Source: Patescibacteria group bacterium | GTDB lineage: Bacteria > Patescibacteriota > Patescibacteriia > GWA2-46-9 | Assembly (NCBI GenBank): GCA_041660005.1 | Contig: JBAZXG010000001.1 | Location: 158,565-222,564 of the forward strand | Direction: 5' to 3' | DNA: 64,000 nucleotides | Part shown: piece by piece, positions 15,563-61,090 of the stretch | Layout of the letters: each line of letters begins with the position of its first letter | How positions within the stretch are numbered: position 1 is the stretch's first letter | Notes under the pieces: generated by a model | The model's database searches: none | What the model saw: the letters and a program-made list of their open reading frames with translations, nothing else | Told to the model about the DNA's origin: nothing | Made by a program: the position numbers and the translations under genes

Positions 15563-15953
15563 AAGGTATTGACCCCATAGAAAGCCCTAGACTCTTAAGT
15601 TCGCCCACGGGCGAGTTGAGAAAGACGGCTCGGCAGAGCTCCGCAAGCAGCAATTTACACCATTTTGTGCGTACGCACAAAATGGTGTAAAAATAATAAA
15701 ATACAAAATCACTAAAAGTAATCAGCGACCACGCCCCAAGGGGACGGGATGTGTAATGGTGATTCCACTTCGCCGAGTCAAACTCACCTCCTTCGCTTAA
15801 GCTTCGGACGGTCAAGGACCTCCTTCGCTCCCACTTCGTATCAAACTACGGCGGGACACAGCAATGCTACGGACGGTCAAGGACCTCCTTTGCTTAAGCT
15901 TCGGACGGTCAAGGAGCTACGCGGGATATTTTTGCTCACCCCCAACAATTGCA
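15563..15953. repeat. Composite repeat-rich intergenic region (palindrome + B-module + three copies of acggacggtcaagga(c/g)c units)
   Basis: Direct reading: ctcctt(c/t)gcttaagcttcggacggtcaagga twice, acggacggtcaagga three times; shares motifs with 20088-20193 and 60930-61013. Confidence 0.6.
15656..15689. repeat. 34-bp perfect palindrome TACACCATTTTGTGCGTACGCACAAAATGGTGTA (copy 1 of 3)
   Basis: Sequence equals its reverse complement; flanked by T-run and A-run. Confidence 0.85.
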
Positions 15954-19931: not shown

Positions 19932-20015
19932 AGCGACTGAAGACTCCTGAAACGACCCCCGAGTTTTCGGTTTGTCGGCGTTTCTGAAAATTGCTTAACT
20001 TTCGCGTTACCGTTT

Positions 20016-20049
20016 TACACCATTTTGTGCGTGCGCACAAAATGGTGTA
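20016..20049. repeat. 34-bp palindrome copy 2 (centre gtgcgc variant)
   Basis: tacaccattttgtgcgtgcgcacaaaatggtgta. Confidence 0.85.
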
Positions 20050-20087
20050 AAAGTTAAAAGTCAATATAATCACGACAAGCTGACGGA

Positions 20088-20193
20088 GTGTAATGGTAAT
20101 CCCACTTCGCCGAGTCAAACTCGGCTACGAGGGATATTTTTGTCTTCTATATTGTAACCTCGCGGCAAGCCGACGAGGTATTGGGGACAAAAA
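20088..20193. repeat. Mosaic repeat: B-module (gtgtaatggtaatcccacttcgccgagtcaaactc) + C-module double hairpin (tttttgtc..cctcg-cggcaagccga-cgagg..gacaaaaa)
   Basis: B-module also at 15751-15785; C-module near-identical at 33521-33577. Confidence 0.75.
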
Positions 20194-21397: not shown

Positions 21398-21430
21398 AAA
21401 ATACCTCGGCTCGCGCCGAGGTATTTTTCA
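21396..21430. terminator. Bidirectional intrinsic terminator shared by convergent genes
   Basis: aaaatacctcggc-tcgc-gccgaggtatttt perfect 13-bp stem with A-run and T-run. Confidence 0.8.
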
Positions 21431-23719: not shown

Positions 23720-23732
23720 CCGGAGAACCTCC

Positions 23733-23808
23733 GAACGCGCGCGACGAGAAGGGCGGGAAGATTGGCAACGAGCTGATCGACCCGCCCTCGTCTTTTCTAG
23801 CCACTTTT
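23733..23808 (+). repeat. 3' cassette module copy 1: ccgaacgcgcgcgacgagaagggcggg-[23-nt loop]-cccgccctcgtcttttctagc (terminator-like inverted repeat)
   Basis: ~70 nt identical to 24367-24445. Confidence 0.75.
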
Positions 23809-23938
23809 TAATCTTTTATTACTTTTTGAAGCCAAAAAATCTTCTCTAAAAAACCTTCATTTTGAGTACATCACTTAGAATTGACGTTTAAATGCTAAAG
23901 GACTAAGGTACTTCGGCACTACTTCATAGTGGAGTGTG

Positions 23939-24358
23939 ATGAGACAAAGCCGAAACTTTCGGCCAGCACCGGAGGAAACAGTGAAGAAACTCATACGCGA
24001 GATCACGTTCTCGACGAGAGGGGTGAGCGTTTCTCTCGCCAACGGAGGAGTGTTCGGCATTAACTGCCAAACACTCGACATGACGGTCGATGAGGGCGAG
24101 GGCGGTCTAAATAGCGCCGCACTGCCCCACGACAGCGTCATGCGGTTCGAGGTCAGAGATGAGGAGGAGTGCCACTGCGCCGCAGTCGAGGGTCCGACTT
24201 TGGGAGCCCACCTGTACGTGGTGTACAGGGACACGACAGGTGGTGAGCAGGGAATGGACATGGGCCTTTTCCCTTTCCGTGATACGCTTCTGCTCCTCTG
24301 TGAAGTGTTCAACAAGCTCAAGCCCGTCACGACTGTCCCCTCCACTCCGGCCGAGTAA
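23939..24358 (+). CDS. Hypothetical protein (140 aa) in GC-rich cassette, C-terminus ..STPAE
   Basis: TTGACG -35-like at 23881, GGAG before ATG; GC ~63%. Confidence 0.4.
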   Translation: MRQSRNFRPAPEETVKKLIREITFSTRGVSVSLANGGVFGINCQTLDMTVDEGEGGLNSAALPHDSVMRFEVRDEEECHCAAVEGPTLGAHLYVVYRDTTGGEQGMDMGLFPFRDTLLLLCEVFNKLKPVTTVPSTPAE

Positions 24359-24366
24359 CCTGAGGC

Positions 24367-24445
24367 CCGAACGCGCGCGACGAGAAGGGCGGGAAGATTG
24401 GCAACGAGCTGATCGACCCGCCCTCGTCTTTTCTAGCTACTTTTT
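24367..24445 (+). repeat. 3' cassette module copy 2 (identical to 23733-23808)
   Basis: Direct comparison of both copies. Confidence 0.75.
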
Positions 24446-24469
24446 AGTGCTTTCGTATTTTAGAATTTT

Positions 24470-24503
24470 TACACAATTTTGTGCGTACGCACAAAATTGT
24501 GTA
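24470..24503. repeat. 34-bp palindrome copy 3 (tacacaattttgtgcgtacgcacaaaattgtgta)
   Basis: Perfect palindrome; 2 substitutions vs copy 1, compensated symmetrically. Confidence 0.85.
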
Positions 24504-24512
24504 ATTTGATAC

Positions 24513-31038: not shown

Positions 31039-32152
31039 TTATTTCTTAGCCAGCCGCTGGCGTTTCTCAACTTCCCATTTAAGGTACGCCTCAACAAATG
31101 ATTCAAACTTACCATCCAACACCGCATCAGTATCACTCGTTTCAAAACCCGTACGGTGATCTTTCACTAGGCGGTAGGGCTGCAAAACATAGGAACGCGC
31201 CTGACTCCCCCACTCTGCAGACTGGAATTCACCGCGCAACTCTTGGCGCTCTTCCGCTTGCTCAGCAACAGCTACCCGATGTAACTTAGCTTGTAAAATT
31301 TTCAATGCTGTTTCACGGTTCTGTTGCTGAGACCGCTCATTTTGACAGCTCACCGTAATGCCCGTTGGAATATGCACAATGCGCACCGCAGAATACGTGG
31401 TATTCACTGACTGACCGCCATGACCCGAGGAAAGAAATGTATCAACGCGCAAATCTTTAGGATCAATCACCTGCTCTTCGATCTCCTCAAGCTCAGGAAG
31501 GACCTCCACAAGTGCAAACGATGTATGGCGCATTTTTTCAGCATCGAAAGGCGAAATACGTACCAGTCGATGAACGCCGTGCTCCCCCTTAAGGTAGCCA
31601 TAGGCGTAACGCCCGTGGAAATGAACGGTCACGGTTTTTATGCCGGCCTCCTGACCCCGATGTTCGTCAATAATACGCGCGGTTAAGGCATGCCGCTCGG
31701 CAAAACGAAGATACATGCGTAAAAGCATTTCTGCCCAATCTTGTGCTTCGGTCCCTCCGCTGCCGGCATGAATCGCCACAATAGCATTGCGCTCATCATA
31801 GCGCCCTTGAAAGAGCGTCGAAAACTCTAAGGCCTGAAATTGCACTAGTAGCTTTTTGTACTCGCCTTCAACCTCAGCTGCCATAGCGTCATCATCGCTC
31901 GTACTTGCTGCTAACGTTGCAAGATCATCAATCGCCTGAAGTAACGTATTCCAAATATTCAGCTCTTCGCGCAATCCACCCGCCCGCTCTGCTTGCTTGG
32001 CGGCGTTCGCCCGGTTGTCCCAGAAACCAGGGCGGCTCATGGCCGCTTCGATGGTTGTCAATTCTGCGTTGCGTCCAGGAAGGTCAAAGCAACCCCCGCG
32101 TCTCGACCACACGGTCGCGAAGGGCGCGGAGGTTGTCCGTTAATTCTCGCAT
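31039..32152 (-). CDS. prfB: Peptide chain release factor 2 with programmed +1 ribosomal frameshift
   Basis: ORF1 MRELTDNLRALRDRVVETRGLL ends at CTT TGA C; +1 frame continues DLPGRNAEL..; SPF and GGQ motifs downstream. Confidence 0.9.
32083..32098 (-). other. RF2 autoregulatory frameshift site: SD-like CGGGGG, then TTG CTT TGA C
   Basis: Reverse-complement reading of 32083-32098. Confidence 0.85.
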
Positions 32153-32153
32153 A

Positions 32154-33482
32154 TTACTTCCGCTCAACTAAAGTGACGGTAACCATCCGCTCTTTTCCTG
32201 CGGTCATCACTTTGAGTGGAACTTGTTCATCAACAGTATGCTGGGCGATGAGCGTAGAGAGTGTGTGGTCAGTATCAATCCTCGTACTGCCAATCTCCAA
32301 AATAATGTCGTTCTCCTTAAGGCCGGCTTTGTCTGCCGGACTACCGGGTGTTACGGCAAAATCAGTGCTCGTCTCTCCGCGCACGATGAGTGCACCATAG
32401 CTAACGGGTAGCTGGTTCTTTTTTGCCAGCGCATCATCAATGATGACATAGCGAACACCCAAGAATGGTCGAATGATACGTCCATTTTTTTTCACACTGT
32501 CTACCACCTGTTTCACCTCATTGGCTGGAATAGCAAACCCAATATTCTGCCCATTACTAGCCATAGCCGTATTAATACCAACCACTTCACCATTTAAATT
32601 AGCAAGTGGTCCGCCCGAATTTCCTGCATTAATGGCAGCGTCTGTTTGCACAACGCCGGAGAGCTGCTCTGTACCAAATGCTGAACCAGAAGCAGTAATA
32701 GACCGAGCCAGCCCAGAAATAACGCCGACCGAGACAGTATTGCGAAATTCTCCGAGCGCATTACCAATGGCAATGGCTGTTTGTCCCAATTCGAGTTTGT
32801 CAGAGTCACCAAAGGTAACCGTGGGGAAATTACTGCCCTCTACTTTAACAACAGCGAGGTCATTAGCCGGATCGCGAGCCAGGACTTTGGCGGATAACTT
32901 CCGTCCGTCATTCAGTAAAACGGTATACTCAGCACTCTCGTCTGCAACAACATGTTTATTGGTCACGATGAGACCATCGCTCGTTACAAAGAACCCCGTA
33001 CCACCGCCAACTTCCTGCTTCTGGGTACCACCACTAGAATCTGAAGAAGGTGGTTGAGAAGGTGTTGGCACCTGACCGAAAAAATTACCAAAAAACGGAC
33101 CATTAAAAAATCCGAACGGCGCTGCATTCGACGGAACCTGCGGCACATCCTTCATAATAACAATACTGACGACAGCCGGCTTCAGTTTACGCACAGCTTC
33201 AACAACACCACCTTGTCTGTTCTCTGCACTGTCCGCTACGGTACCCGTATCTTTATTCTTGCTAACTAGCTGACCAGGGTGCGTTAACTGCGCCAAGGTC
33301 GTACCAAAAGTGTCATTCAGCACGGTAGCGCCAACAACACCAAAGAGCGCCCCACTCGCAGCACCCACAAGAAAACTAACCAAAAAAACGGCAATGAAGA
33401 GTGACTTTGACTCTTCGTAAAGTTGGTTTAATGATTTCATATAGTTACTTTCTACTGTACGAAAAAGTTGGCATGGGGTCAA
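32154..33482 (-). CDS. htrA: HtrA/DegP-family trypsin-like serine protease with C-terminal PDZ domain, N-terminal TM anchor
   Basis: GNSGGPLANLNGEVVGINTA catalytic Ser motif, His/Asp regions, PDZ; true start possibly MKSLNQ at 33440. Confidence 0.85.
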   Translation of the reverse strand: MTPCQLFRTVESNYMKSLNQLYEESKSLFIAVFLVSFLVGAASGALFGVVGATVLNDTFGTTLAQLTHPGQLVSKNKDTGTVADSAENRQGGVVEAVRKLKPAVVSIVIMKDVPQVPSNAAPFGFFNGPFFGNFFGQVPTPSQPPSSDSSGGTQKQEVGGGTGFFVTSDGLIVTNKHVVADESAEYTVLLNDGRKLSAKVLARDPANDLAVVKVEGSNFPTVTFGDSDKLELGQTAIAIGNALGEFRNTVSVGVISGLARSITASGSAFGTEQLSGVVQTDAAINAGNSGGPLANLNGEVVGINTAMASNGQNIGFAIPANEVKQVVDSVKKNGRIIRPFLGVRYVIIDDALAKKNQLPVSYGALIVRGETSTDFAVTPGSPADKAGLKENDIILEIGSTRIDTDHTLSTLIAQHTVDEQVPLKVMTAGKERMVTVTLVERK

Positions 33483-33893
33483 TTACCCCGCCCCAGAGGG
33501 GACGGGGTATATAATGGTATTTTTGTCTTCTGTGTTGTAACCTCGCGGCAAGCCGACGAGGTATTGGGGACAAAAAATAATGCAAGCTGCGTCCACCTTA
33601 TCCTCTACAAAGTGCACACCCTCATGTTCTAAGAGTTGACGTTTTCTTCTGGCGCCTCCGCTGTAGCCGCCCAGTTCTCCATTAGCACGCACTACCCGAT
33701 GACAAGGTATGGTGGTTTTTGCCTGCGAACCTCCTAAAAAAGCCGGGTACGGGTTTTTAGAAAGCGCACTACCGACCGCTCGAGCAGCATTCGGAGAGCC
33801 AACAGCTCGGGCGATCCGTTCATAAGTAGTTACCCGACCACGCGGCACACCAACGACGGCTTGCCATACCCGCTCAGAAAACGAACGTTCCAT
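33483..33893 (-). CDS. ogt: Methylated-DNA-protein-cysteine methyltransferase (MGMT/Ogt DNA-binding domain) with C-terminal extension read through a dispersed repeat
   Basis: TYERIARAVGSPNAARAVGSALSKNP...IPCHRVV active-site motif; last ~33 codons are the C-module repeat. Confidence 0.8.
   Translation of the reverse strand: MERSFSERVWQAVVGVPRGRVTTYERIARAVGSPNAARAVGSALSKNPYPAFLGGSQAKTTIPCHRVVRANGELGGYSGGARRKRQLLEHEGVHFVEDKVDAACIIFCPQYLVGLPRGYNTEDKNTIIYPVPSGAG
33488..33577. repeat. Repeat copy: ccccgcccc-agag-gggacgggg hairpin + C-module double hairpin
   Basis: Near-identical to 20136-20193; related hairpin at 15733-15748. Confidence 0.75.
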
Positions 33894-60929: not shown

Positions 60930-61013
60930 TACAGCCATTCTTCGCTACCTCCTTCGCTGAAGCTACGGAAGGTCAAGAAAGCTACGAAGGGCATTCTTCG
61001 CTGGCGCGAAGAA
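60930..61013. repeat. Repeat-family fragment abutting tRNA 3' end (cctccttcgctgaagctacggaaggtcaagaaagctacgaaggg + hairpin cattcttcgc-tgg-gcgaagaatg)
   Basis: Matches units of 15788-15925 region. Confidence 0.6.
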
Positions 61014-61090
61014 TGGTGGGCGCGGGAGGATTCGAACCTCCGACCTTTCGAATGTGAATCGAACGCTCTAACCAACTGAGCTACGCGCCC
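61014..61090 (-). tRNA. tRNA-Val (anticodon CAC) with encoded CCA
   Basis: Cloverleaf read manually: GGGCGCG acceptor, GCTC/GAGC D-stem, TTCGA/TCGAA anticodon stem, loop TTCACAT, GGAGG-TTCGAAT-CCTCC T-arm, discriminator A, CCA. Confidence 0.85.

Follow-up and report, generated by a model that had tools for sequence, protein, structure and literature searches.

A 95-nt two-hairpin palindromic element very probably inserted into the 3' end of an ogt gene in a Patescibacteria genome

We examined the 3' end of ogt, a gene of the MGMT family, in a 64-kb stretch of DNA from a Patescibacteria group bacterium (contig JBAZXG010000001.1, positions 158,565 to 222,564), which we call the window. Coordinates are those of the + strand of the window, and ogt is encoded on the minus strand, followed by htrA and prfB. 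The last 30 codons of ogt coincide with a 95-nt block that contains two hairpins, and the present study concerns the origin of this block and its effect on the gene.

The ogt gene and the extra block at its 3' end

The features at the junction of ogt and htrA are as follows.
33483..33893, minus strand: ogt (MGMT-family) open reading frame (ORF) of 136 amino acids (aa), with the stop codon TAA at 33483-33485, taken from the ORF list
33576..33893, minus strand: native part of ogt, aa 1-106 (to ..KVDAACII), from alignments of homologues and syntenic orthologues and a DNA alignment with the closest relative, L056
33484..33578, minus strand: the 95-nt block, very probably inserted, which codes for F107-G136, provides two stop-codon bases, is absent from the L056 site, and whose excision restores a 117-aa ORF
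33483..33485, minus strand: new stop codon TAA, spanning the junction of block and native sequence (..GGGG TA/A TT GAC, with the junction at the slash)
33445..33483, minus strand: native 3' remnant of ogt, ATT GAC CCC ATG CCA ACT TTT TCG TAC AGT AGA AAG TAA (I DPMPTFSYSRK and stop), which aligns with the L056 end
33454..33482, minus strand: promoter-like sequence TTGACC-17-TACAGT upstream of htrA, inside the native 3' end of ogt; a consensus match, with a putative function
32154..33440, minus strand: htrA (trypsin-like protease with PDZ), with its true start ATG at 33440-33438, Pfam Trypsin_2 and PDZ domains, and an N-terminus conserved with L056

The ogt product is a single-domain protein. 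Pfam DNA_binding_1 (PF01035, MGMT) covered aa 5-93 (E 1.5e-32), NCBIfam TIGR00589 (ogt) matched the ORF (E 8e-27), and solved MGMT structures also matched. The active-site motif PCHRV was found at P63-V67, with P63-C64-H65-R66 invariant in the homologue alignment; the ORF thus has both the DNA_binding_1 domain and the PCHRV cysteine by which we recognized an MGMT/Ogt protein. Its C-terminus reads ..AACIIFCPQYLVGLPRGYNTEDKNTIIYPVPSGAG (translation of 33483..33893), and the last 30 residues, F107-G136, are FCPQYLVGLPRGYNTEDKNTIIYPVPSGAG, including the stretches GYNTEDK and NTIIYPVPSGAG. None of 266 homologues from a collection of 5.8 billion proteins covered this tail, the maximum query coverage being 79%. 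Single-domain relatives among them were 90-110 aa long, and the aligned homologues ended a few residues past a conserved hydrophobic-F motif that aligned with ..AACIIF. The initial annotation, made from the sequence of the window, had placed the end of the MGMT domain around ..LLEHEGVHF and a tail of 30-35 codons after it; a non-homologous tail of 30 aa is indeed present, but homology continues to I106. In an AlphaFold2 model, the block-mean predicted local distance difference test (pLDDT) score was at least 84 up to aa 100, except in a loop insert (aa 51-60), and was 73 for aa 101-110; pLDDT was below 50 for aa 113-136, and the tail is predicted to be disordered.

Relatives were found by an FtsZ-anchored scan of GTDB species representatives. 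The closest one available was Candidatus Uhrbacteria bacterium CG10_big_fil_rev_8_21_14_0_10_48_11 (L056), a metagenome-assembled genome with 83%, 89%, and 75% identity to the window in FtsZ, NrdR, and HtrA, respectively, and with the same gene order, ftsZ-nrdR-hyp112-ogt-htrA-prfB. Its Ogt has 112 aa, and the stop codon lies 13 nt ahead of the htrA ATG. The L056 gene ends TCT ATT ATT GAC CTC AAT GCT TCT TCT GCG TAA, where the window reads TGC ATT (95 nt) ATT GAC CCC ATG CCA ACT TTT TCG TAC AGT AGA AAG TAA. In the pairwise DNA alignment, the block at 33484-33578 was extra in the window, exactly between ATT and ATT GAC, and was absent from L056. Its register is ambiguous, with ATT present at both edges and four equivalent registers down to 33481-33575. 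A nine-residue insertion in Ogt, AFLGGSQAK (aa 51-59; window 33717-33743), located just ahead of PCHRV and modeled with low confidence (block-mean pLDDT 55), was shared only with L056 in the orthologue alignment. The protein with the best match (P0002, 53% identical) was rejected as an orthologue; it stands in an unrelated context with ccm genes, Ku, and ThiC.

As the length of the block (3x31+2 nt) is not a multiple of three, the frame shifts and the native end is now out of frame. The new TAA joins the TA at the end of the block to the A with which the native ATT begins; downstream, the 11 terminal codons of the native gene and their stop codon (33445-33447) persist. When the block was excised in silico, whichever of the four registers was used, the result was a 117-aa ORF that ended in ..KVDAACIIDPMPTFSYSRK before the stop codon; the empty-site form of the junction reads ..TGCATTATTGACCCC.., and the reconstructed tail PMPTFSYSRK matched an orthologue end, PLDRFLYKEK, at P, F, Y, and K. 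To judge from this alignment, the sequence 3' of the block is the native end of ogt, which would now be an untranslated remnant.

In 15 of 84 Patescibacteria loci (L056 and 14 others), ogt adjoined a homologue of hyp112. The Ogt proteins of these 15 syntenic orthologues were 98-126 aa long by homology (one mechanical ORF extended upstream), and all ended 7-16 residues past a (K/R)V motif, for example with ..IIDLNASSA (L056), ..IIDV (L085), or ..PLDRFLYKEK (L088). L056 and L085 have an uninterrupted IID motif, which the block splits in the window. The tail was found in none of the 15, distant ones included, and the event would therefore be an insertion in the lineage of the window, not a deletion in L056. 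The opposite direction, in which the block is ancestral, the long tail is the older state, and L056 precisely deleted the block, is hardly credible. Palindrome-associated transposable elements (PATEs) and other IS605-type elements can be precisely excised or lost through repeat-mediated deletion (PMC3119063), and the 3-nt ATT repeat could mediate such a loss. However, all 15 syntenic orthologues lack the block and end as L056 does, and the out-of-frame remnant encodes an orthologue-like C-terminus with the same alignment end, which is expected only if this frame was functional in the ancestor.

We conclude that, with high probability, a 95-nt non-coding, two-hairpin palindromic element entered ogt after codon 106 and ahead of the final 11 native codons, shifting the frame and making the tail chimeric. 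The course of events would be that an element similar to PATEs or to repetitive extragenic palindromic (REP) sequences inserted after codon 106, that the ribosome reads 30 element-derived codons and stops at the TAA created at the distal junction, and that the old C-terminus, DPMPTFSYSRK, was left as an untranslated remnant carrying the promoter-like motif of htrA. The view in the initial annotation that a repeat element supplies the 3' end of ogt thus held, with the block encoding the last 30 aa and stop-codon bases and being absent in L056. Its proposal that an insertion had removed the native stop and created a chimeric tail was right about the tail, as seen from the empty site, the 15 orthologues, and the excision; the native stop was not removed and lies out of frame. 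The two comparisons it had proposed bore this out: the excised form aligned with the ends of Ogt orthologues, and a relative with an empty site was found, together with 15 syntenic orthologues that lack the tail. An equally long and similar tail in proteins without the repeat, which would have spoken against a chimera, was found neither in the 15 nor in the 266 homologues. The sequence of the ogt tail was 100% identical in two other assemblies, L001 (JGI) and L002 (ENA); as three assemblies in all agree, an assembly artefact is unlikely.

The MGMT domain and the active site are untouched, and the tail would be translated and Ogt activity retained. Since the C-terminus of Ogt varies in length and sequence among orthologues, the new tail would be tolerated; most likely it is a disordered by-product, not an adaptation. 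It has also to be considered that the insertion inactivated ogt, through an unstable chimera or through a structured 3' end causing mRNA cleavage and ribosome stalling, and that the gene is a young pseudogene. In an AT-rich relative (L052-L055; JGI 3300013138 and others) with 69% FtsZ identity and the order ftsA-ftsZ-nrdR-hyp-htrA-prfB, ogt is missing and a 98-nt spacer stands in its place; this lineage has lost ogt from this position, and ogt would thus be dispensable in the clade. Stable hairpins also occupy the last 95 nt of the ORF, and for a stable stem in a comparable position in Coxiella, the authors raised this possibility for EnhC, with questions about the effect of the stem on the mRNA (PMC5896051). 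What speaks against inactivation is that the ORF carries no additional disruption, retains the MGMT domain, the PCHRV site, and every residue invariant in the family, and occurs as the same allele in three samples. MGMT proteins have variable and dispensable C-terminal tails, that of human AGT being one example. We therefore regard a pseudogene as unlikely. The adjacency of hyp and htrA in the relative without ogt had also prompted the idea that ogt and the repeat arrived together as a mobile cassette; this was rejected, as the synteny of hyp and ogt is kept in L056 and 14 other loci.

The two hairpins and their relatives in the window

On the + strand, the block consists of TA, the second hairpin with TAT, the linker ATAATGG, a C module, and AT. 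The C module reads TATTTTTGTC..(CCTCG-CGG-CAAG-CCG-A-CGAGG)TAT..GACAAAAA. A covariance model (CM R1) was built from four hairpins of the type found here, and the scores below refer to it.
33518..33576, + strand: C module, a nested fold with an outer A/T-rich stem of 8 bp (33520-33527/33569-33576) around the core hairpin
33541..33564, + strand: core bulged hairpin CCTCG-CGG-CAAG-CCG-A-CGAGG with TAT (40.3 bits)
33486..33510, + strand: second hairpin CCCCG-CCC-CAGAG-GGG-A-CGGGG with TAT (37.3 bits), forming an 11-bp stem when folded and lying 2 nt from the edge of the insertion
20135..20193, + strand: second copy of the C module, intergenic, after a hairpin plus U-run resembling an intrinsic terminator of a minus-strand transcript
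15727..15754, + strand: weaker family hairpin, a cousin of the second hairpin, also followed by a TAATGGT linker (E 0.05; mosaic alignment)
21399..21426, no strand assigned: weaker, fully palindromic family hairpin ATACCTCGGCTCGCGCCGAGGTAT between convergent ORFs (E 0.028 and 0.13 on the two strands; regex scan)

The terminator at 20 kb is putative, being read from fold and sequence and not from the scan tool. The C module at 33518-33576 is identical to that at 20135-20193 at 57 of 59 positions, and a 40-mer of it occurred exactly twice in the window, against an expectation of 0 from shuffles. The near-identity with 20136-20193 in the initial annotation is thereby supported; the description of the repeat as dispersed is limited to two full copies of the 59-nt module in the window. 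The GC-rich hairpin that it had noted in the ORF (CCCCGCCCCAGAGGGGACGGGG, 33486-33507, with the arms CCCCGCCCC and GGGACGGGG) is present and is unique in the window at up to three mismatches, yet it belongs to the same covariance-model family as the core. Both tail hairpins, in the same orientation, have stems of 5 and 3 bp, a loop of 4-5 nt, a bulged purine, and TAT as a tail. The model gave five hits in the window; in the fetched loci it gave 53, of which 30 were distinct. In the 30 distinct members, 99.6% of the cells were paired and five of eight pairs showed compensatory changes; none of 500 shuffles reached the observed value, and slid controls were far lower. Both tail hairpins belong to one bulged-hairpin family.

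The RNA of the ogt sense was predicted to fold into the nested hairpin and an 11-bp GC hairpin at -40 kcal/mol (z = -4.8), and none of 200 shuffles was as stable; UAAUUGACC lies directly 3' of the 11-bp hairpin. A scan found no terminator-like site at 33484-33578 on either strand, and neither hairpin is followed by a T-run. An intrinsic or bidirectional terminator was rejected on these grounds, namely the lack of a terminator-like site and of a U-run. The hairpins cannot serve as 3' stabilisers while ribosomes translate through them. These observations bear on the suggestion that the repeat was shaped in place to provide a coding extension, a stop, and a terminator for ogt together. Two very stable hairpins do stand at the gene end, the ogt-sense strand from 33600 to 33485 has no stop triplet in any of the three frames, and the stop comes directly past the last hairpin. 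However, 1.9% of the 95-nt windows here are likewise open in all frames, and the other module copy, at 20 kb, is intergenic and has a TAG in one frame; for these two reasons, coding adaptation of the element was rejected. In addition, L056 has no such sequence and its 13-nt spacer between ogt and htrA suffices, the native end and stop are still recognisable downstream, there is no terminator-like site, and the tail is predicted to be disordered. We consider this suggestion, also made in the initial annotation, to be extremely improbable.

The arrangement of a hairpin of the second type, a TAATGGT linker, and a C module recurs in intergenic mosaics at 15.7 kb and 20 kb, with extra or different internal modules, and GTCAAT borders the mosaic at 33478 and 20066 (two of three mosaics). 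The full block was matched only in contigs of the same population (L001, L002, and L008). The shared module order, the GTCAAT borders, and the lack of a second copy of the complete unit would fit a block derived from another intergenic mosaic through recombination or gene conversion, possibly in two steps, in the manner of the module shuffling of bacterial interspersed mosaic elements (BIMEs). This is possible but rather doubtful; the same hairpin occurs in transposon ends and in multi-copy elements without ORFs elsewhere, and the junctions are clean, with a shared sequence of only 3 nt.

Other repeats were observed in the window. A perfect palindrome of about 39 nt, TTTACACCATTTTGTGCGTACGCACAAAATGGTGTAAA, has three intergenic copies (15654-15692, 20013-20051, and 24468-24504), each at the edge of a mosaic of repeat modules; it may serve as an operator or a bidirectional terminator, or represent one more mobile module. 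A 95-nt direct repeat (23731-23825 and 24367-24461; 93% identical) with a GC-rich hairpin and a T-run flanks an ORF of 140 aa (23936-24358) that had no Pfam match, and the arrangement resembles a gene end that was duplicated, or a small gene inserted with its own terminator. A further repeat, ACCTCCTTCGCTTAAGCTTCGGACGGTCAAGGACCT, is present in 3-4 copies (15786-15918, 60947-60982), one of which is about 35 nt from the only tRNA gene of the window (61017-61090).

Transposon link and comparison with known elements

The 21-nt core of the hairpin was found exactly in 45 JGI metagenome contigs, in two settings. In the first, it lies near one end of elements of about 100 nt without ORFs, with a similar hairpin near the other end; these elements occur in multiple copies, their flanks vary, and they often coincide with contig breaks. 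In the second, as in the window, a single core hairpin is nested in an outer stem that differs per organism (seven stems were seen). The sole link to a transposon came from L050 and L036, where the cognate element is that of another organism: a TnpB gene of 336 aa (Cas12f1-like_TNB, E 6.7e-14; OrfB_IS605, E 2.7e-6) is followed, about 90 nt past its 3' end, by the identical 21-mer, and the L050 gene is preceded by a similarly shaped hairpin, ATACCCCACGTGCTTGCACTGGGG. This arrangement is that of a TnpB-only transposon of the IS200/IS605 type. In L050 (1-1602) and L036, bulged hairpins thus stand on both sides of tnpB, and the 3' hairpin, which is identical to the core in the window, may mark the end of the omega-RNA of the element.

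PATEs of Haloquadratum walsbyi are derivatives of IS200/IS605 without a transposase, lacking terminal inverted repeats (TIRs), with similar palindromes near both ends and no target duplication (PMC3119063). The 95-nt block showed four of the six PATE features that we examined. It is too short for a transposase gene. Its ends, ATTTTTTGTCC.. and ..GGGGCGGGGTA, are not inverted repeats of each other, and the 8-bp inverted repeat TTTTTGTC/GACAAAAA is confined to the internal C module. Similar palindromes in the same orientation lie near the termini, at 33486-33507 (2 nt from the edge) and at 33541-33561 (14-17 nt from the other edge). Finally, the palindromes are related to IS605-type ends through the L050 element, of the TnpB (IS1341) type, which they match while the flanks beyond them are heterogeneous. 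As the TnpB-only element has the identical 21-nt core as its end hairpin, and its derivatives without ORFs share it, the block is best classified, on sequence grounds, as a PATE/REP-like element. It would have been mobilised in trans by a Y1 transposase of the TnpA or REP-associated tyrosine transposase (RAYT) type, or copied by recombination between mosaic repeats. It differs from PATEs in its host, a bacterial member of the Patescibacteria instead of a haloarchaeon, in a cognate transposon known only from the contig of another organism, in the 3-nt ATT repeat at the junction where PATEs have no duplication, in a full unit that is single-copy in the data available, and in a core hairpin that is also nested in an outer stem varying between organisms.

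Several points weigh against the insertion of a mobile element as we describe it. The empty site comes from a single close relative, and the 266 homologues included no allele of the same species with an empty site. Everything searched yielded one copy of the complete 95-nt unit, the only repeated part being its 59-nt module, with two copies; the mobility of the block as a whole is therefore putative, and two insertions in succession or a recombination event would explain it equally well. The 3-nt ATT at both edges matches neither a clean lack of duplication nor a clear target-site duplication, the target itself being ATT ATT and the empty site being one. TnpB was not found in the window or the FtsZ-anchored loci by tblastn with the L050 TnpB as query, and no TnpA/RAYT gene turned up in the window, where no dedicated search for Y1 transposases was made. 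The covariation among the 30 distinct hairpins comes from an alignment fitted to the model and hence biased towards structure, and we infer the production of the tail from the sequence.

Other searches also gave negative results. None of ten large ORFs beside hairpins was a transposase, and PF01797 was not among the 25 families listed of 120 matched by 145 hairpin-neighbouring ORFs, a comparison that did not include a systematic PF01797 scan of the window ORFs. No module of the block was found in any of 80 FtsZ-anchored loci, the closest relative included. The 40-mer of the C module had no match in the GTDB species representatives, the 21-mer had none in viral contigs, and a literature search with the sequence string gave none. 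In Rfam, only one tRNA reached the gathering score in the window, and nothing meaningful was found at E <=10 in the region or at E <=1 in five hairpin-bearing loci; a known RNA family was rejected, as the hairpin had no Rfam match. A TIR-bearing miniature inverted-repeat transposable element (MITE) of the Tc1/IS630 type with TA duplication was rejected as well, since the block has no TIRs at its ends and only the ATT register restores the sequence of the relative. An integron attC-like site was rejected by eye, because the flanking sequences depart from the GTTRRRY/RYYYAAC core sites.

Cases in which a small structured repeat provides the 3' end of a gene are already documented, and ogt adds another. 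In Coxiella burnetii, the C-terminal 33 residues of EnhC come from QMITE2, which also has an 8-bp overlap with ogt (PMC5896051). In both cases, a small structured repeat at the 3' end of a gene gives about the last 30 residues, with the stop at or just past the element. However, QMITE2 is a TIR-bearing MITE inserted in frame in enhC, whereas our block has no TIRs, shifts the frame, and leaves the native end as a remnant.

The block also resembles two other groups of palindromic repeats. The first resemblance is that a palindromic repeat lies within a coding gene and is read as codons. In Rickettsia, palindromic elements (RPEs) of 100-150 bp, described by Ogata and colleagues in Science in 2000, are reportedly found in frame inside protein genes and translated, with the downstream protein preserved; here, in contrast, the downstream 11 codons are lost, and the likeness is one of position. 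REP sequences and BIMEs of Proteobacteria with their RAYTs (TnpA_REP), treated by Nunvar and colleagues in 2010 and by Ton-Hoang and colleagues in 2012, are said to be extragenic, to have hundreds of copies with a flanking GTAG, and to be linked to the Y1 transposases of IS200/IS605. They share with our hairpins a bulged, imperfect palindrome 20-35 nt long that adjoins a short conserved oligonucleotide (ATA/TAT here), the mosaic clusters of modules, and a probable evolutionary tie to IS200/IS605 Y1 transposases. The differences are the number, five family hairpins in 64 kb (counted in the window only), and the flank, which is not GTAG.

A similar case is present in another organism. In L024 (1-717, minus strand), an ORF resembling CDP-alcohol phosphatidyltransferase ends in ..KKMKLLAASRRGIF, with its last 12 codons from a hairpin element in the opposite orientation and element-derived last residues ..MKLLAASRRGIF. 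The ORF reaches the contig end, and a sister copy (L012) in the same frame stops 3 nt later. This is a second C-terminus rewritten by an element. In L029 (550-3420) and other VAPE01 contigs (L011, L013, L016, L021, L041, and L043), a multi-copy element of about 170 nt or more is headed by this 21-nt hairpin. The VAPE01 genome encodes large TPR-PAS histidine kinases, which are not typical genes of the Candidate Phyla Radiation (CPR), and the hairpin family thus probably extends beyond Patescibacteria.

More broadly, we tentatively propose, with somewhat less than even confidence, that the hairpin CCTCG-CGG-CAAG-CCG-A-CGAGG(+TAT) and its covarying relatives are undescribed and widely spread derivatives of IS200/IS605, similar to TnpB/omega-RNA ends, which occur as single hairpins or as PATEs with two hairpins, both in Patescibacteria and in the groundwater or sediment bacteria found alongside them. 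They would nest in host palindromes (one 21-nt core in seven outer stems) and land at or a few nucleotides from gene ends, repeatedly rewriting C-termini.

Consequences for htrA, Ogt and Patescibacteria genomes

The distance between the ogt stop and the htrA ATG is 42 nt, and this spacer is the remnant of the old ogt end. The initial annotation had let the ogt stop abut htrA, which is true only for a mechanical ORF started at TTG; the N-terminus from the real ATG (33440..33438), MKSLNQLYEESKSLF, corresponds to MKTLSQLYEESKSLF in L056. The promoter-like motif in the remnant has a counterpart at the homologous place in L056 (7375-7403, TTGACC-17-TAAAGT), and its conservation in both species suggests an internal htrA promoter embedded in ogt. 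If so, the block now sits directly upstream of the -35 sequence, and the constraint on a promoter may explain why the remnant is so well preserved. Downstream, prfB (31039-32151, minus strand) has a canonical +1 frameshift site of RF2, CTT TGA C, at 32083-32089, with the short upstream frame MRELTDNLRALRDRVVETRGLL from the ATG at 32151 to the stop.

Gene ends remodelled by insertions are already known from other bacteria. The less ordinary part of our finding is the hairpin family, in which a 21-nt core is identical across many organisms, is nested in diverse host stems, and lands at gene ends. The ogt locus would provide a clean and datable example of a tiny palindromic mobile element remodelling the end of a gene in an ultra-small CPR genome, in which the shifted frame, the junction stop, and what survives of the old C-terminus can be read against an empty site. 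The annotated 136-aa 'MGMT family protein' would be a chimera and unfit for defining the C-terminus of the family, and the 3' end of ogt is seen to hold a conserved promoter-like motif for htrA. The 21-nt marker and the covariance model can now be used to survey such elements. Our finding points to hairpin elements of the IS200/IS605 type as active shapers of the intergenic regions of Patescibacteria.

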